DNA from: an uncultured Christensenellaceae bacterium
Lineage (GTDB): Bacteria > Bacillota > Clostridia > Christensenellales > MGBC116941
Direction of reading: 5' to 3'
Length of the DNA: 64,000 nucleotides
Assembly (NCBI GenBank): GCA_910585035.1
Contig: CAJUEF010000004.1
Span: 1,499 to 65,498 of the forward strand
Below are positions 14,700 through 58,520 of this stretch, one piece after another (positions within the stretch are counted from its first letter, which is position 1; the number at the start of each line of letters is the position of its first letter). A program made the position numbers and the translations under genes. The notes below the pieces were generated by a model. The model worked only from the letters and a program-made list of their open reading frames with translations, had not been told where the DNA came from and made no database searches.

Positions 14700-14968
14700 T
14701 AAGAAATTGATAGGTAAATGTATTGATGGGGAAACCTGTTTTAGCTGATGTAAAGAGAGAAAATGGTTGGTGTAAATTTTCGTGAGGCTAAAATAAATCG
14801 GTCATCACCCCTGAACAGCAAGGCTGAAATTTAAAGTAGGCTGCGCCGGGACCTCCCGTTATTGAGGAGCAGTATTATTTGTACTGTGTTAAGCGCACAT
14901 TTTATTATGTGAATTTAGGTGGTAACGCGGATTTATTTCGTCCTTTAACGAGATAAATCCGTTTTTTG
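14700..14968 (+). promoter_or_regulatory. T-box riboswitch leader (tRNA-sensing antiterminator), probable Ile specifier
   Basis: Stem I elements are present: a tgatg/tgaa GA motif, an AGAGA box (about 14753), and distal loop ggttggtg closed by gaaaat/attttc. An AGTA box and an F-box (cccgtta) follow. The T-box sequence aatttaggtggtaacgcgg (14912-14930) overlaps the left arm of terminator gcggatttatttcg/cgagataaatccg (14927-14961), which is followed by a T run. Confidence 0.85.
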
Positions 14969-15014: not shown

Positions 15015-15061
15015 GGTTAGTTTTCTTTTACTGATTTTCTTTTTTATAAAAGAAAAATCAG
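15015..15061 (+). repeat. family A hairpin repeat, copy 1 (between the T-box terminator and ilvB)
   Basis: ggttagttttctttta flank, then ctgattttctttt / aagaaaaatcag stem with a 1-nt bulge. Confidence 0.7.
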
Positions 15062-15088
15062 ACAAAATTATGTTTGGAGGTTAAAGAA

Positions 15089-17206: not shown

Positions 17207-17224
17207 TGATTATAAGACGAAAAT

Positions 17225-17300
17225 GTGTTATAATAACCTCACGAAATGCTTGCAAAAGCGAAGCTTTTGATCATTTCGGAGAACATTGAAACTTATAATT
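17225..17300 (-). repeat. family B dispersed element, partial copy (B1), inverted relative to the copy at 42127
   Basis: gttataataacctcac ... ggagaacattgaaacttataatt matches the reverse complement of 42192-42264. The internal nested hairpin is cgaaatg/catttcg with caaaagc/gcttttg. Confidence 0.7.
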
Positions 17301-17334
17301 ATATAAATAAAGAAAGTTGGATTAAACGTAATTA

Positions 17335-17375
17335 GTTTTCTTTGGTTTTACCTTTCTTTTTTAAAGGAGGGCAAG
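17335..17375 (+). repeat. family A hairpin repeat, copy 2 (degenerate right arm)
   Basis: gttttctttggttttacctttctttt is conserved, but the right arm has decayed to aaaggagggcaag. Confidence 0.6.
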
Positions 17376-17452
17376 CGGAGAAATAAAAGGGATGAGGGAA
17401 TTAAGTAATATTTTAAATAATGTGTTAAGGAAGCCCACATATTGATGCAACT

Positions 17453-20185
<2,733 letters not shown>

Positions 20186-20201: not shown

Positions 20202-20246
20202 CCAAAATCCCTAAAAAGCTGAAAACTTTTTGGGGATTTTTCTTTT
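20202..20246 (+). terminator. intrinsic terminator after ilvD
   Basis: ccaaaatccctaaaaag (20202-20218) pairs with ctttttggggattttt (20226-20241), followed by a T-rich tract. Confidence 0.7.
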
Positions 20247-20298
20247 ACTTTTCTTTTGTTACCTTTCTCTAAGAAAAGAAAGGTAACGCCAAAGAAAC
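20236..20298 (-). repeat. family A hairpin repeat, copy 4 (reverse orientation)
   Basis: Stem gttacctttc (20258-20267) / gaaaggtaac (20278-20287). The flank gccaaagaaac is the reverse complement of the GTTTCTTTGGC flank. Confidence 0.75.
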
Positions 20299-20440
20299 TT
20301 AATAGCAATGTGTATTGTGGTAAATATATAAGACTTTCGTTTGCTCCTTTATTTTTTTAAAAGAAGATGAAAGAGAAATGGAAAAAATAAAGACTGCCTG
20401 AATAAACAAATATATTTATTAAAGTGTTTATATGGAATAA

Positions 20441-20485
20441 GGTTTTCTTTTTGCTTCTTTTTCTTTTTTCTAAAAGAAAAAGAAG
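20441..20485 (+). repeat. family A hairpin repeat, copy 5 (immediately upstream of the cimA RBS)
   Basis: ggttttctttttg flank, then a perfect 14-bp stem cttctttttctttt (20454-20467) / aaaagaaaaagaag (20472-20485). Confidence 0.8.
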
Positions 20486-20504
20486 AAGAGAGAGGTGATA
20501 AATT

Positions 20505-24884: not shown

Positions 24885-24950
24885 CCATCTTTCTTTTACT
24901 TTTTACTTTTTCTTTTAAAAAAGAAAAAGTAACAAAAAGAAAATTATGAA
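24885..24950 (-). repeat. family A hairpin repeat, copy 6 (reverse orientation)
   Basis: Perfect palindrome ttactttttctttt (24903-24916) / aaaagaaaaagtaa (24919-24932). The flank caaaaagaaaat is the reverse complement of ATTTTCTTTTTG. Confidence 0.8.
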
Positions 24951-24971: not shown

Positions 24972-25006
24972 AAAAAAACCACGGAGACAGCAATTCCGTG
25001 GTTTTT
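24972..25006. terminator. bidirectional intrinsic terminator (leuB + / XRE gene -)
   Basis: An A run, then ccacgga (24979-24985) / tccgtgg (24995-25001), then a T run. Confidence 0.75.
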
Positions 25007-25757: not shown

Positions 25758-26048
25758 ATGAAATCTCTTGGTCTTGTGCGTAAGGTGGACTGTTTGGGAA
25801 GAATTACAATTCCCAAAAGAATAAGAGAAGCCTGTAATATTCAAAAAGGCGATTATCTTGAAATATGTTTAAATAATCAATCAGAAATTATTTTTGTGCC
25901 ATGGCCAAACAAGTCGTATTCAAATATGGGAAATAAGGCAGAGGTTTTCAGGTCTAATCTGATTAATAAATTTGCTGAACAAAAAAATATAAATATTGAA
26001 AAAATTATTGAAATAATTGAAAATGAATATAAAAATTTAGATAATTAA
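25758..26048 (+). CDS. AbrB/MazE/SpoVT-family DNA-binding domain protein
   Basis: The N-terminus LVRKVDCLGRITIPKRIREACNIQKGDYLEI is a swapped-hairpin AbrB-type motif. RBS aaaggaag is present. Confidence 0.75.
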   Translation: MKSLGLVRKVDCLGRITIPKRIREACNIQKGDYLEICLNNQSEIIFVPWPNKSYSNMGNKAEVFRSNLINKFAEQKNINIEKIIEIIENEYKNLDN

Positions 26049-26127: not shown

Positions 26128-26150
26128 AACGCTTTAACAAGCGTTTTTTT
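26128..26150 (+). terminator. intrinsic terminator after the AbrB-like gene
   Basis: aacgctt (26128-26134) / aagcgtt (26139-26145) followed by a T7 run. Confidence 0.65.
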
Positions 26151-26253
26151 ACTTTCTGTCCCTGTTTTTTTTAAAAGAAATACATTATTAATAAAGTGTG
26201 TTTGTTATGGGAATGTCTATAATAAATGCACAAATACTTATTTGAGGATAATT

Positions 26254-26513
26254 AAGTTTTCTTTTGCTTACTTTTCTTTTTCTTAAAAGAAAAAATAATA
26301 AAATGTTTTTGTGGGTGAAATGACTATATAAAAGGAAAAAATTGTTTTAGAGGGTGAAATAAGTTTTCTTTTGCTTACTTTTCTTTTTCTTAAAAGAAAA
26401 AATAATAAAATGTTTTTGTGGGTGAAATGGCTATATAAAAGGAAAAAGTTGTTTTAAAGGGTGAAAATAAGTTTTCTTTTGCTTACTTTTCTTTTTCTTA
26501 AAAGAAAAGTAAG
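26254..26513 (+). repeat. tandem array (about 2.4 units of 107-108 bp), each unit starting with a family A hairpin repeat
   Basis: aagttttcttttgcttacttttctttttcttaaaagaaaa recurs at 26254, 26361 and 26469. Units 1 and 2 are near-identical. Only unit 3 keeps the perfect stem cttacttttctttt (26482-26495) / aaaagaaaagtaag (26500-26513). Confidence 0.9.
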
Positions 26514-26617
26514 AATTCATTGCTCTAATAATTATTATGTATTATAATAATTATCATACAAATATGCTTATATATAAAGCTTTGAAATAATCGTAATTAC
26601 TAAGAAGGAGATGTGTT

Positions 26618-27310
26618 ATGCAATATTCAAAGGAACTTGAAGAGATGGAATGTGTGCTTCAGGGTACTAACCACGGTCCTGCTCCTATTCCCGTAGAGGG
26701 CAAGTGGGTGCAGTCTACTCAGATAAGCGATGTAAGCGGTCTTACTCACGGGGTGGGCTGGTGCGCACCTCAGCAGGGCGGCTGTAAGCTTACGCTTAAT
26801 GTTAAAAACGGAATAATAGAGGAAGCTCTTATCGAAACAATAGGATGCAGCGGAATGACTCACAGCGCAGCAATGGCAAGTGAGATACTTCCCGGCAAAA
26901 CTCTCCTAGAGGCTCTTAATACCGACCTTGTATGCGACGCTATTAACTGCGCTATGAGAGAGCTGTTTTTGCAAATAGTATACGGCCGCACTCAAACAGC
27001 TTATTCACAGGGTGGTTTGCCTGTAGGCGCAGGCCTGGAAGATTTGGGCAAGGGCCACAGAAGCCAGGTTGGAACCATGTATGGCAGCAGGCTCAAAGGC
27101 GCAAGGTATATGGAAATGGCGGAAGGCTATGTGCTGGAAATCGGTCTTGATGAAAACAGTGAAATAATTGGTTATAAGTTTGTCAACATCGGTAAAATGA
27201 TGGACGCTATAAAAAAAGGAGTCGACCCTAAAAAGGCATTTGAAGATAATGTGGGAACTTACGGACGCATTGACGAAGCTGCAAAGCTAATCGACCCTAG
27301 AGAGAAATAG
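26618..27310 (+). CDS. IscU/NifU-like Fe-S scaffold-domain protein with a unique C-terminal extension of about 100 aa
   Basis: GVGWCAPQQGGCKLTLNVKNGIIEEALIETIGCSGMTHSAAMASEILPGKTLLEALN..LVCDAINCAMREL parallels the IscU layout (a Cys before the first strand, GC...A.S, a late Cys). RBS aaggag is present. Confidence 0.7.
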   Translation: MQYSKELEEMECVLQGTNHGPAPIPVEGKWVQSTQISDVSGLTHGVGWCAPQQGGCKLTLNVKNGIIEEALIETIGCSGMTHSAAMASEILPGKTLLEALNTDLVCDAINCAMRELFLQIVYGRTQTAYSQGGLPVGAGLEDLGKGHRSQVGTMYGSRLKGARYMEMAEGYVLEIGLDENSEIIGYKFVNIGKMMDAIKKGVDPKKAFEDNVGTYGRIDEAAKLIDPREK

Positions 27311-27324
27311 GAGGAATAAAGACA

Positions 27325-28323
27325 GTGATACAATTTGAAGGTTATGATAGAAGAATAGATAACATCAATGCTGTTTTAAAGGAAAACGGTTTTTCCTCTC
27401 TTGAAGAGGTGAAGCAGCTTTGCGAGAGCAAAGGCATTGACGTGCATAAAATTGTTTTCGGAGTGCAGCCAATTGCGTTTGAAAATGCCGCATGGGCATA
27501 CACTCTTGGTGCGGCTATTGCCATTAAAAGAGGGGTTAATAAGGCGAGTGACGCAGCAGCCGTAATTGGCGAAGGCTTGCAGGCGTTTTGTGTTCCGGGC
27601 AGCGTGGCTGACCAGAGAAAGGTTGGCAGAGGCCATGGAAATCTTGGAGCAATGCTTTTAAGAGAAGAAACAGACTGTTTTGCTTTCCTTGCGGGACATG
27701 AATCCTTTGCGGCGGCAGAGGGAGCAATAGGCATTGCAAGGGCTGCAAACAAGGTTAGGCAAAAGCCTCTTAGGGTAATTTTAAACGGCCTTGGAAAAGA
27801 CGCTGCTTACATTATAAGCCGTATAAACGGTTTTACTTTTGTGGATACCAAGTTTGATTATGACACTGATAGCCTAAGTGTGGTATCGGAAAAAGCATTT
27901 TCCAAAGGCGAAAGAAGCAAGGTTCGCTGCTATGGCGCCAACGATGTCAGAGAAGGCGTTGCTATCATGATTAAAGAGGGCGTGAACGTGTCAATTACAG
28001 GCAATTCCACAAATCCTGTGCGTTTTCAGCATCCTGTTGCCGGCACTTATAAAAAGTGGGCGGTGGAAAACGGCTTTAAATATTTTTCTGTGGCATCAGG
28101 AGGAGGAACAGGAAGAACGCTGCATCCTGATAATATGGGTGCAGGGCCTGCATCCTACGGGCTTACCGATACCATGGGAAGAATGCACTGTGACGCCCAG
28201 TTTGCAGGGTCATCCTCTGTTCCCGCTCATGTTGATATGATGGGGCTTATAGGTATGGGCAACAACCCAATGGTGGGAACCACCGTTGCCGTTGCCGTTG
28301 CCGTTGAAGAGGCAATGAAATAA
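27325..28323 (+). CDS. GGGtGRT-motif protein (uncharacterised conserved family)
   Basis: GTG start 9 nt after AGGAGG. The motif SGGGTGRT is encoded at 28096-28119 (GGGTGRT at 28099-28119). I recall a family named after this motif with no assigned function. There are no TM segments. Confidence 0.7.
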   Translation: MIQFEGYDRRIDNINAVLKENGFSSLEEVKQLCESKGIDVHKIVFGVQPIAFENAAWAYTLGAAIAIKRGVNKASDAAAVIGEGLQAFCVPGSVADQRKVGRGHGNLGAMLLREETDCFAFLAGHESFAAAEGAIGIARAANKVRQKPLRVILNGLGKDAAYIISRINGFTFVDTKFDYDTDSLSVVSEKAFSKGERSKVRCYGANDVREGVAIMIKEGVNVSITGNSTNPVRFQHPVAGTYKKWAVENGFKYFSVASGGGTGRTLHPDNMGAGPASYGLTDTMGRMHCDAQFAGSSSVPAHVDMMGLIGMGNNPMVGTTVAVAVAVEEAMK

Positions 28324-28998: not shown

Positions 28999-29295
28999 TT
29001 ATTCTTTGTTGGCTTTTTTAATTTTTTTCTTGGGACAGGTATAGTTTAAAACCTCGTGACTGTCGCATAACCCTTCTGTGGTTGGATCTGTGACTGCATT
29101 CCAAATACTTATAACTATAAGACCAAGCACATATGGATTTAGCGCTGCGCTTTTAAAAAGGTTAAAAACAATAGTCCAGGTTGTCAGGTCTTCAAATGTC
29201 AGCTTTGCATAAGTAAGCATGGGCATAATTATAGCGAGCAAAAGCTGAACAATGAATACAGGATTTTTAAACCTGACCTTCCAGTTTATTTTCAT
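28999..29295 (-). CDS. phage-type holin (phi LC3 / Phage_holin_1-like)
   Basis: MKINWKVRFKNPVF...NAVTDPTTEGLCDSHEVLNYTCP matches the remembered NWKVR.KN...DPTT.G..DS...L.Y..P holin signature. ATG 29295 is preceded by AAGGAGG. The longer track ORF (to 29490) overlaps the upstream gene. Confidence 0.8.
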   Translation of the reverse strand: MKINWKVRFKNPVFIVQLLLAIIMPMLTYAKLTFEDLTTWTIVFNLFKSAALNPYVLGLIVISIWNAVTDPTTEGLCDSHEVLNYTCPKKKIKKANKE

Positions 29296-29311
29296 TTTGC
29301 TAACCTCCTTG

Positions 29312-29899
29312 TCACCACCTGCTGTAATGACCCCGAACATCCACATGGGTGAAATAGCTGTATTTGCCAACTCCGCCGCTGTCTCCCACAGTTTTATCAG
29401 CAATTTCATACATTTTTTCCGCAGAAATGTCTTTGGTCTGAATATCCGCAGCTGCAGCATAAAGGTGCTGTGATTCTTGAGCGCCTTCAACCTTTTTGTT
29501 ATATGAAGGTGTGCGGTATCCGCTCATAATGGTTACAGGAACATTTCCGTATGCAGAACGAACCTTTTCCAGCATATTCATTAAGGACTGTAAATTATTC
29601 CAATATTCCGGCGGAACATCGGTTCCGTCCTTACATTTGAATTCAGACATTTTAAAATGTTCACTGCGGGGTTCTTCTGAGCCTTGTGAAATTCCCAGTT
29701 TTTCATAGGTATCAGGTCCCACAATGCCGTCGGATGCAATGCCTTTTTCCTGCTGAAATTTTTTAACTGCAGACTGGGTTTGCTTGCCGAATATAGAATC
29801 CAGGTTTCCTTTATAAAAGCCTAAAGACTGCAACTTTTTTTGAGCGTCAAGAATTTGACTGCTTTTCATCATTGGATCTGTTAATTTTAGTAATTTCAT
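29312..29899 (-). CDS. peptidoglycan-binding domain + M15A (D-Ala-D-Ala carboxypeptidase-like) peptidase; endolysin-like
   Basis: N-terminal PG_binding_1 repeat (LQSLGFYKGNLDSIFGKQTQSAVKKFQQEKGIASDGIVGPDTY). C-terminal M15A zinc motifs SQHLYAAAADI and FTHVDVR. Confidence 0.8.
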   Translation of the reverse strand: MKLLKLTDPMMKSSQILDAQKKLQSLGFYKGNLDSIFGKQTQSAVKKFQQEKGIASDGIVGPDTYEKLGISQGSEEPRSEHFKMSEFKCKDGTDVPPEYWNNLQSLMNMLEKVRSAYGNVPVTIMSGYRTPSYNKKVEGAQESQHLYAAAADIQTKDISAEKMYEIADKTVGDSGGVGKYSYFTHVDVRGHYSRW

Positions 29900-32731: not shown

Positions 32732-32831
32732 ACCGGGTTATTGATTTTAATAGAGCATATATGAAAACGGGAGTGAAAGAAAGTTTTCTCCCTTTCTTTA
32801 CTGCACGGTTTTACTATAGTTATTAAGATAT

Positions 32832-48867: not shown

Positions 48868-48912
48868 AGGTTTTCTTTTTATTGCTTTTTCATTTTTCTA
48901 AAAGAAAAAGTA
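48868..48912 (+). repeat. family A hairpin repeat, copy 8 (left arm degenerate)
   Basis: ggttttcttttta flank and an intact right arm aaaagaaaaagtaa (48899-48912). An isolated right-arm fragment, aagaaaggtaag, lies at about 48806. Confidence 0.6.
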
Positions 48913-48941
48913 AAATAGAAGTATAGAAAAAGCAACAAAGT

Positions 48942-51645: not shown

Positions 51646-51661
51646 GTTATGTTTATTTATT

Positions 51662-51706
51662 GGTTTTCTTTTTGTTACTTTTTCTTTTTTCTAAAAGAAA
51701 AAGTAA
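51662..51706 (+). repeat. family A hairpin repeat, copy 9 (near-consensus)
   Basis: ggttttctttttg flank, then a perfect 14-bp stem ttactttttctttt (51675-51688) / aaaagaaaaagtaa (51693-51706) with loop ttct. Confidence 0.85.
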
Positions 51707-51711
51707 GCAGT

Positions 51712-58185: not shown

Positions 58186-58235
58186 CCTCTTACTTTTCTT
58201 TTTAGGAAAAAAGAAAAGTAAGCAAAAGAAAAACC
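58186..58235 (-). repeat. family A hairpin repeat, copy 10 (reverse orientation)
   Basis: Perfect 14-bp stem cttacttttctttt (58189-58202) / aaaagaaaagtaag (58209-58222). The flank caaaagaaaaacc is the reverse complement of GGTTTTTCTTTTG. Confidence 0.85.
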
Positions 58236-58302
58236 AGTTGATTTTAATATTTTATTATTTATAAATATTTTTGCAAACTTATTGTAGAAACAGAAGATAA
58301 TT

Positions 58303-58322
58303 GAAGTAAGCAAAAGAAAAAC
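58303..58322 (-). repeat. family A repeat, half copy (flank + one arm)
   Basis: gaagtaagcaaaagaaaaac repeats 58217-58234 almost exactly, but no partner arm is present. Confidence 0.6.
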
Positions 58323-58520
58323 TTTATTTAATTAAACAATGTTAGTGATAAAAAAGACAATTATCAAAAGAAAAATCAATTAACGTGTAATACATCAAAT
58401 CGGAAATTTCATTTGAAAATAGGTGATAAATTGAAAATAAAAGCCATTATAATGTAAAAAATTTAAAATAAAATGTCCGAAAATAGGTTGTTATATCTGA
58501 TTTTAAATTAATTTAAGATA

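Follow-up and report, generated by a model that had tools for sequence, protein, structure and literature searches.

The element at positions 51662-51706 of the window (the whole 64,000-nt stretch of DNA analysed here) reads GGTTTTCTTTTTG TTACTTTTTCTTTT TTCT AAAAGAAAAAGTAA and is a short (~45 nt), non-coding repeat dispersed between genes. It combines a hairpin with an adjoining segment that mirrors the pyrimidine arm of the stem. Judged from its sequence, this combination very probably represents a potential intrastrand triplex architecture of the PIT type. The best explanation we can offer for the family as a whole is that of a potential-triplex repeat that forms structures in single-stranded DNA or RNA, in our view chiefly at the DNA level, a proposition that we regard as evenly balanced.

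A three-part intergenic repeat

We refer to the mirroring segment as F, to the pyrimidine arm of the hairpin as L and to the purine arm as R (Table 1). Read along one strand, the order is F = T_m C T_n G, a linker (N)TTA of 3-5 nt, L = C T_n C T_m, the loop, R = A_m G A_n G and finally TAA(N'). The focal hairpin (L + R) is predicted at -13.6 kcal/mol, with a z-score of -3.9.

A covariance model, designated R1, was built on 52 diverse copies and used to search the window without filters. It recovers 11 full and two partial copies, one decayed and one half, all confined to 15.0-26.5 kb and 48.8-58.3 kb, with the rest of the window having none. Shuffled sequence contains no copies of the element. 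A strict hairpin pattern likewise gives eight strand matches at five window loci, as compared with none in 100 dinucleotide shuffles. Both searches confirm the multi-copy family around 51662 that had been proposed from a sequence-only reading of this DNA. Two stretches listed there as possible decayed copies, 32773-32805 and 26150-26180, reach just 10-12 bits under R1 (E >= 5) and are no longer counted.

None of the curated covariance models of Rfam 15 matches at the copies, even at E-values up to 10, and the sole Rfam match in the window is a T-box leader at 14714-14948. As far as Rfam is concerned, which has no matching family, the earlier statement that no described element could be recognised is thus borne out. 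Literature searches by sequence string and by topic returned no description of the A/T-rich family. The accompanying suggestion of a REP/MITE-like or structured-RNA family survives in part: the element is a dispersed intergenic hairpin of REP-like character, but it falls in the described class of potential intrastrand triplexes (PMC4666352).

Table 1. Segments of the focal element and copies of the repeat in the window
Feature	Position	Strand	R1 score (bits)	Description
Focal segment F	51664..51674	+		TTTTCTTTTTG (T4 C T5 G); candidate Hoogsteen third strand, mirrors pyrimidine arm
Focal pyrimidine arm L	51675..51688	+		TTAC TTTTT C TTTT
Focal loop	51689..51692	+		TTCT
Focal purine arm R	51693..51706	+		AAAA G AAAAA GTAA
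Copy	15018..15064	+	49.3	T-box terminator to ilvB start; stem base CTGA/TCAG; F ends in A
Decayed copy	17334..17378	+	23.7	F and L intact, R degenerate; missing from related strains L002, L004 and L005
Copy, GG class	17453..17498	+	58.9	ilvN-ilvC spacer; kept in six strain contigs; F TTTTCTTTGG, L CTTACCTTTC, R GAAAGGTAAG
Reversed copy	20255..20300	-	45.4	Beyond ilvD terminator (20204-20240)
Copy	20441..20488	+	56.4	Immediately 5' of leuA SD and start codon; stem base CTTC/GAAG
Reversed copy	24899..24946	-	56.3	~20 nt past leuB stop, followed by terminator 24974-25006
Tandem copy 1 of 3	26254..26302	+	47.7	Purine-arm tail decayed; repeat families D5, D6
Tandem copy 2 of 3	26361..26409	+	47.7	Purine-arm tail decayed as in the 26254 copy
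Tandem copy 3 of 3	26469..26516	+	66.1	Intact
Copy	48868..48917	+	51.4	5' of SNF-family transporter gene; stem with a G·T pair and one mismatch
Focal copy	51661-51710	+		R1 match span
Reversed copy	58186..58235	-	67.9	Top score; 17 nt past stop of second SNF transporter gene
Half copy	58275..58323	-	18.4	E 0.31; F and start of L only

Covariation in the stem

It had been noted that both arms of the stem change together between copies, and the variants listed are all present. Among 137 distinct copies, drawn from other genomes as well as the window and aligned by fitting to the model, 97.8% of the cells are paired and 11 of the 14 stem pairs have changed on both sides, values reached in none of 500 shuffles. 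The base of the stem, where C..G or G..C adjoins TTAC/GTAA, also co-varies as Watson-Crick pairs, as in the variants CTAC/GTAG, CACAC/GTGTG, CTCAC/GTGAG, CTGA/TCAG and TGAC/GTCA. With Watson-Crick pairs only being modelled, the hairpins have predicted energies from -10 to -16 kcal/mol and z-scores between -2.2 and -4.3.

The third segment mirrors the stem

The segment preceding the hairpin had been described as a conserved flank. This description has to be replaced, as F co-varies with the stem in the form of a mirror repeat, which is the signature of the third strand of a triple helix. Being a mirror image of the pyrimidine arm, F can be aligned in parallel with the purine arm A_m G A_n G as its Hoogsteen-compatible partner. 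When the F segments of 84 distinct copies are right-aligned on their terminal G and read in parallel register, T faces A or C faces G at 734 of 741 positions. In 81 of 83 copies, the C of F stands opposite the interior G of R, as compared with a permutation mean of 34.3 and a maximum of 51. Copies with asymmetric cores distinguish the two possible directions, with the parallel register fitting 54 of 55 and the antiparallel register two of 55. In all 75 distinct copies compared, F and R have proximal runs (T in F, A in R) of the same length n, and in 56 of these both runs are equal, against 11.6 ± 2.9 upon random re-pairing of F with R (0/10,000 permutations). The antiparallel reading, in which F would be a direct repeat of L and thus a Watson-Crick partner of R, fits none of the 49 copies in which m differs from n. 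Copies sharing descent are not independent events, and all of these counts are to be read with that in mind.

The run-length classes found are (2,3), (2,4), (3,3), (3,4), (3,5), (4,3), (4,4), (4,5), (5,3) and (5,4), and the mirror rule is kept in more than 10 distinct core classes. To illustrate, two loci have cores with two C residues and still obey it: L072 (F TTTCTTCTTTTTT, R AAGAAGAAAAAA) and L063 (F TTTTCTCTTT, R AAAGAGAAA). The interior C residues of F are isolated. Where the duplex has G or GG beside the turn, F almost always carries G or GG rather than C or CC (seven of the seven GG cases in the run-length set), with exceptions to this G/GG pattern including L087, L105 and L118. Isolated interior C residues and G or GG near the turn both fit triplex chemistry, and the G or GG can pair with L and so close the turn between F and L. 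When a pyrimidine tract mirrors the pyrimidine arm of a hairpin, the sole established structural meaning is that of a parallel Hoogsteen third strand, which argues that F is such a strand. Maintained almost perfectly over more than 10 classes and more than 10 phyla, the rule is strong comparative evidence of a third-strand constraint.

The same rule bears on the idea of an ordinary selfish hairpin of the REP/MITE type, in which F would serve as the recognition or guide sequence for a RAYT or IS200/IS605-like Y1 transposase acting on single-stranded hairpin DNA. Y1 transposases read short guide sequences beside hairpins, which counts for the idea; but a guide or protein site gives no reason for F to mirror the stem over more than 10 classes, and we consider an origin of this kind quite improbable.

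Distribution in other genomes

A collection with one genome per species was scanned with a pattern consisting of TTAC, a pyrimidine run, a loop, a purine run and GTAA, with F left unspecified. At least 113 stretches match. Despite its absence from the pattern, F is present on one side in ~125 of the 129 matches listed. Because the pattern fixed TTAC...GTAA and the run structure, conservation outside F is partly imposed by the search, the unbiased parts being F and the secondary copies only. Several MAGs supply several contigs, and R1 adds extra copies within the 8-kb blocks.

Among the matches listed from this hairpin-only scan, the three-part design occurs in more than 10 phyla, with taxon names taken from the record titles. 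There are many Clostridia, including Oscillospiraceae, Christensenellales and Lachnospiraceae, as well as Selenomonadaceae. The Bacteroidota are represented by Bacteroides, Saprospiraceae, Chitinophagales, Mucilaginibacter and Flavobacteriia, and further groups listed are Melainabacteria, Lentisphaerae, Hydrogenedentota, Omnitrophota, Nitrospirota, Desulfobacterales, Campylobacterales, Gammaproteobacteria, Moraniibacteriota and Dadabacteria. Butyricicoccus porcorum BB10 and Mucilaginibacter sp. E4BP6 are cultured carriers among the matches. The G+C content of the matched loci ranges from 27% to 63%. The nearest loci among the matches listed, at 65-69% nucleotide identity to the window, are in Oscillospiraceae MAGs. 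REP families are normally species-specific, so that a design found in more than 10 phyla is a further point against the selfish hairpin.

A phage origin was considered and rejected, as a viral collection of 2.9 million contigs yielded just two matches. Among the ten window proteins scanned and the viral contigs, no carrier, whether a transposase or otherwise, was found that could account for near-identical copies across phyla.

Predicted triplex and alternative fold

In the proposed structure, L and R would pair as a Watson-Crick hairpin and F, because it mirrors L, could lie parallel to R in the major groove, forming T·A-T (in RNA, U·A-U) triples and one C+·G-C triple. The F-L-R strand would then be a pyrimidine motif, class IV of Hoyne and Holder, while the order on the complementary strand is that of class II (pyrimidine, purine, reverse-Hoogsteen purine), as in the E. 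coli BoxC/PIT/TMECO element. The F-L-R block order is present in ~125 of the 129 hairpin matches listed and in every full copy of the window. The number of triplets ranges from six to 11; the F-L linker comprises 3-5 nt plus a closing G:C pair, and the hairpin loop usually spans 2-8 nt, being longer in a few copies. We count the element as falling within the ITxF criteria (stem of 6-15 triplets, at most one mismatch, loops of 1-6 nt).

F is joined through its terminal G to the stem base, and the linker can pair with the 3' tail, from which it follows that the 14-bp hairpin and the in-register triplex should be mutually exclusive. An in-register triplex would use the (N)TTA linker as its loop and leave the 3' tail free, while the full hairpin would shift F out of register. 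On geometric grounds, a full hairpin and a full triplex at the same time were rejected, and the geometry leads us to infer two alternative states, either the long hairpin or a triplex whose tail is free. That the element works as a two-state nucleic-acid switch between a long hairpin and a U·A-U/C+·G-C triple helix at the borders of coding regions, conserved across phyla, is a bolder claim and one we think unlikely. If true, its role might be to cap and protect the 5' UTR or to sense pH, Mg or temperature.

Triplexes of the pyrimidine motif are the ones that form in RNA (PMC4666352), so hairpin-type triple helices in bacterial transcripts become testable. A 2026 review of RNA triple helices gives riboswitches and group II introns as the only bacterial cases (PMC13541005). 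Should the triplex form in RNA, bacteria would have their first widespread RNA triple helix beyond these.

Placement at the edges of coding regions

The sequence-only reading had found + copies 5' of genes and reversed copies 3' of them in the window. This orientation rule holds and extends to 131 copies from many genomes, in which the purine-arm end faces the adjacent coding region with strong polarity. Gene calls in the other loci are longest ORFs, so that stops are exact and starts approximate. The distance from the R end to a stop codon has a median of 20 nt, is 20 nt or less in 34 of the 67 reversed copies measured and is exactly 0 nt in 13, the flush copies reading TAA|CTTAC or TGA|CTTAC. 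The corresponding distance from the F end has a median of 266 nt and is 20 nt or less in one of 69. Ahead of genes, 18 of 51 sense copies have their R end 10-60 nt 5' of a start codon, several of them directly abutting the SD, while the F end is similarly near a start codon in one of 35. Copies between convergent genes are enriched (27) and those between divergent genes depleted (five). Among co-directional gene pairs there is no orientation bias, with 28 sense and 21 antisense copies. Canonical terminators occur within 150 nt beyond 15 of the 40 copies that lie within 25 nt of a stop codon, which places those copies inside 3' UTRs, at a rate not above background.

Such placement is hard to explain without transcription or translation, and it counts for an explanation at the RNA level, in which a 5' U-rich segment would clamp the hairpin as a U·A-U/C+·G-C triple helix that protects the RNA or tunes translation, with reversed copies acting as plain REP-like 3'-UTR hairpins between stop codon and terminator. 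The RNA-forming type of the pyrimidine motif (PMC4666352), the sense copies a short distance 5' of start codons and the reversed copies between stop and terminator all agree with it. The main problem for the RNA reading is the lack of strand bias between co-directional genes together with the fact that most gene-adjacent copies, approximately two-thirds, would be transcribed as the purine-tail strand; on that strand the mirror third strand has no known RNA role, as purine-motif triplexes do not form in RNA. Further points against it are that no promoter is positioned 5' of F, that copies are not kept at orthologous positions and that G·U is not in excess over A·C in the stem (17 vs 19, counts that are partly register artefacts and do not separate RNA from DNA). 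An action in RNA is the main rival of our preferred explanation, and we rate it as somewhat doubtful.

Sequestration or mimicry of the SD, which had been raised for the purine arm, does not fit: the arm is SD-like only in the GG stem variant, the SD, where present, is outside the stem, and most gene-adjacent copies lie just past stop codons in the opposite orientation. The position of reversed copies 0-20 nt past stop codons, the usual place of a terminator, might also suggest a non-canonical transcription terminator. We find this scarcely credible, given an A/U-rich stem with no U-tract following in either orientation, genuine terminators adjoining several copies and the lack of terminator activity in PIT elements (PMC4666352). 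A scan for intrinsic terminators flagged no copy and placed separate terminators nearby, and a search for a positioned -10 box or promoter beside the element, including upstream of F, found none; promoter and terminator roles were both rejected on these grounds.

Gene content near the copies differs between the window and other genomes. Within the window (~38% G+C, with a steadily positive GC skew), copies cluster at the T-box-led ilvB-ilvN-ilvC-ilvD and leuA-leuCD-leuB cluster and near two amino-acid transporter genes of the SNF family, a glutamate-synthase-like gene and a PLP enzyme gene. This would suit a regulatory site at the DNA level, either an operator for a regulator of amino-acid genes or, beside promoters, an A/T module that resembles an UP element and serves the alpha subunit of RNA polymerase. 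The succession of T-tract, loop and A-tract looks like UP-element subsites, and both L072 and L077 have an extended -10 (TGGTATAAT) after the end of R. Elsewhere, the neighbours are unrelated housekeeping genes, including polA, dnaA, dnaN, gyrB, thrS, glyS, atpB, aroA, dapA, holA and others, and an all-against-all BLAST of the flanking ORFs revealed no recurrent neighbouring protein. Since most gene-adjacent copies lie past stop codons, many sense copies are 10-30 nt from a start codon and hence too near to precede a promoter, and no -10 box holds a fixed position, regulation of this kind is very improbable. Several narrower candidates were also rejected: an operator of a branched-chain amino-acid regulon (neighbours elsewhere are unrelated), a CodY-like operator (a poor match to the CodY box), part of the T-box leader (which ends at 14948, with one copy alone nearby) and a Leu- or Phe-rich leader peptide or other small ORF (the distribution is independent of gene function).

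Instability and turnover

Strains 97-98% identical to the window differ from it at the edges of copies, where spacers are replaced and an 11-nt indel, ACTTTTCTTTT, occurs. For instance, ~100 nt of the ilvN-ilvC spacer are replaced between strains up to the first base of F, and the ilvD-leuA spacer between two copies is replaced, being 136 nt in one case and 36 nt in the other. The three tandem copies belong to an array at 26189-26516 with a period of 107-108 nt, and tandem arrays in L076 and L034 have periods of 89-131 nt. Many short metagenome contigs stop inside copies. A search for empty sites in related strains encountered contigs terminating within copies and no clean empty site. In orthologous NifU-like/GGGtGRT operons of the window, L103 and L109, the copies sit at differing positions, which suggests turnover rather than conserved placement. 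The element breaks metagenome assemblies and marks spots that vary between strains.

Because of these edge differences, tandem arrays, contig ends and differing positions in orthologous operons, instability is counted in favor of a specific, and more tentative, form of our preferred explanation: a strand-symmetric repeat that acts at the DNA level, causing local instability and surviving at the edges of coding regions. We would give this somewhat less than an even chance. Opening of the duplex by replication, transcription or supercoiling would allow both strands to fold; the folded forms would hinder polymerases and attract repair, and local duplications, indels and recombination between copies would be the outcome. 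Copies would persist only where they are harmless, namely at the borders of coding regions. Strand symmetry is favored by the lack of orientation bias relative to GC skew (39 vs 44) and between co-directional genes, and by the similar numbers of G·U and A·C.

Strain-level gain and loss is also what a selfish hairpin would produce, and the multiple intergenic copies, their excess between convergent genes and scarcity between divergent ones, and the decaying copies at 17334, 26254, 26361 and 58275 agree with it as well. The flanks outside the span from F to N', however, contain neither conserved sequence nor a target-site duplication, and ten scanned window proteins adjoining copies have no transposase domain, with no RAYT gene seen among them. 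The balance between leading and lagging strands (39 vs 44) also speaks against a selfish hairpin, and mobilisation of the IS200/IS605 type on the lagging strand was rejected for want of this strand bias. If the element were purely selfish or neutral, its strict polarity would have no explanation. This polarity towards coding regions is also the main fact that our favored explanation, that of a structure-forming DNA repeat, leaves unexplained.

Comparison with known systems

Like the REP and BIME sequences of Enterobacteria and Pseudomonads, the present repeats are short, extragenic, imperfect palindromes in many copies and both orientations, enriched at the 3' ends of genes and between convergent genes, often from stop codon to terminator. 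Unlike them, they have no GTAG-type 5' tetranucleotide adjoining the stem, contain a third mirror-repeat segment as an integral part and are not species-specific. They differ from MITEs in that there are no target-site duplications and F is outside the inverted repeat. An intrinsic (Rho-independent) terminator, with its G+C-rich stem and trailing U-tract, would differ from the element's A/U-rich stem, which has no U-tract after it in either orientation.

Among RNA triple helices, the eukaryotic and viral ENE, MALAT1 and PAN structures resemble the element in having ~9-10 U·A-U triples broken by one C+·G-C. In these, a U-rich internal loop flanked by stems clamps a 3' A-rich tail, whereas the element would place the 5' Hoogsteen strand, the pyrimidine strand and the purine strand in one hairpin; moreover, it is seen as DNA sequence only, and half of its copies are on the other strand. 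In common with the mirror repeats of H-DNA, F and L together make up a pyrimidine mirror repeat whose two halves are 5-6 nt apart, which is what the H-motif requires. What H-DNA lacks is the added inverted repeat R, which supplies the purine strand in cis, so that the triplex can form from one strand alone.

The closest relatives are the potential intrastrand triplexes. Holder et al. (2015), after Hoyne et al. (2000), distinguish four motif classes, catalogue approximately one million candidate motifs in prokaryotes and characterise one family, the G/C-rich TMECO, which is the same as BoxC and PIT (PMC4666352). In vitro, TMECO folds into a stable DNA triplex; it shows neither promoter nor terminator activity, gives no detectable triplex by in vivo DMS footprinting and marks loci that vary between E. 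coli strains (PMC4666352). Bacterial intrastrand triplex repeats have been known since 2000, have been studied only in their G/C-rich proteobacterial form and have no accepted function. The TMECO consensus, CCCTCNCCC N3-6 GGGNGAGGG N3 GGGNGAGGG, is absent from the present element. Nevertheless, both are intergenic, multi-copy repeats of ~50 nt with pyrimidine, purine and third-strand blocks on one strand; both have a class II purine strand, no tie to the function of neighbours and no promoter or terminator signature, and both accompany sequence that is locally variable between strains. There are also differences. The present element is rich in A/T, its triples being T·A-T apart from a single C+·G-C, while TMECO is G/C-rich; its pyrimidine strand is a clean class IV, which could form in RNA; its mirror symmetry is near-perfect and its polarity to coding regions strict; it adds a Watson-Crick extension of 4-5 bp, NTTAC/GTAAN', that would compete with the triplex turn; and it occurs in more than 10 phyla among the matches listed, TMECO being a repeat of Proteobacteria. 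Relative to BoxC/TMECO as described in PMC4666352, two features are new: the fixed polarity to coding regions, with copies often abutting the stop codon directly, and the built-in competition predicted between hairpin extension and triplex turn.

Coding context and strain variation in the ilv region

One copy of the repeat occurs between the terminator of the T-box leader and the ilvB start codon (see table). Farther downstream, in the ilvN-ilvC spacer, the segment carrying the extended -10-like sequence and small hairpin is conserved in those related-strain contigs that reach that far, and this conservation suggests that ilvC has an internal promoter or a leader of its own here. The window and one related-strain contig (L002) both carry the 11-nt segment beside the ilvD terminator; another strain contig (L003) lacks it. 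The + strand over the same interval also has an F-like tract that is mismatched to the stem, F being the candidate third strand (TmCTnG) of the element.

Tandem copies and neighboring genes

The tandem array looks like a local duplication, and its units 1 and 2 show identical decay of the purine-arm tail. The genes for a NifU-like protein and a member of the GGGtGRT family (PF14057) form a pair that is conserved in Lachnospiraceae and Oscillospiraceae MAGs, and the positions of the repeats around this pair vary from genome to genome. Near this repeat-rich region, the window also has ORFs for a MazE-like antitoxin and a phage-holin-family protein, at 25758-26048 and 28999-29490, respectively.

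Location of features in the window and in outside loci (L numbers)
Feature	Location	Remarks
T-box leader	window 14714-14948	upstream of ilvB; Rfam RF00230, 110 bits
Terminator of T-box leader	window 14927-14962	upstream of ilvB
Extended -10-like TGTGTTATAAT, then small hairpin (GCAAAAGCGAAGCTTTTG)	window 17224-17290	just 3' of ilvN
Minimal ORF, ATG-TAA	window 17499-17504	directly 3' of purine arm and SD-like GGAG of the 17453 copy
11-nt segment ACTTTTCTTTT	window 20247-20257	adjoins ilvD terminator and reversed copy
Three tandem units, 107-108 nt each	window 26189-26516	one element copy per unit
NifU-like/GGGtGRT (PF14057) gene pair	window 26618-28323; L103 212-1207; L109 4498-6166	
Double-F copies	L046 367-422; L066 556-613; L095 620-680; L092 6090-6148; L021 5530-5591	
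(4-5,4) copy, immediately followed by (2,3) copy	L118 2278-2795	two size classes back to back
(G/C)CGCGTCC subfamily	L029, L058, L062, L071, L023, L093, L090, L119	3' of R arm
Lineage-specific extensions	L052, L056, L067, L072, L077, L078, L082, L086, L104	5' of F
Lineage-specific extensions	L011, L012, L020, L026, L064, L065, L085	

Compound copies and lineage-specific extensions

Outside the window, the element also occurs in compound form. Double-F copies have one F segment on either side, making the complete unit a ~24-bp palindrome which reads F, pyrimidine arm (L), purine arm (R) on both strands. The back-to-back copies of L118, which belong to different run-length classes (m,n), each have their own matching F, and the pair recurs 428 nt apart.

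Copies from Oscillospiraceae and Eubacteriales MAGs include a subfamily with a conserved (G/C)CGCGTCC extension 3' of the purine arm; this extended end often abuts the stop codon of the neighboring gene. Melainabacteria copies have CGACARTGTNTT 5' of F in common. Those from Saprospiraceae and Chitinophagales have common sequences on both sides, GGAAAGACTGCC on the 5' side of F and AATGCCAGGC on the 3' side of R, and also a common loop, GGGCAAGC.
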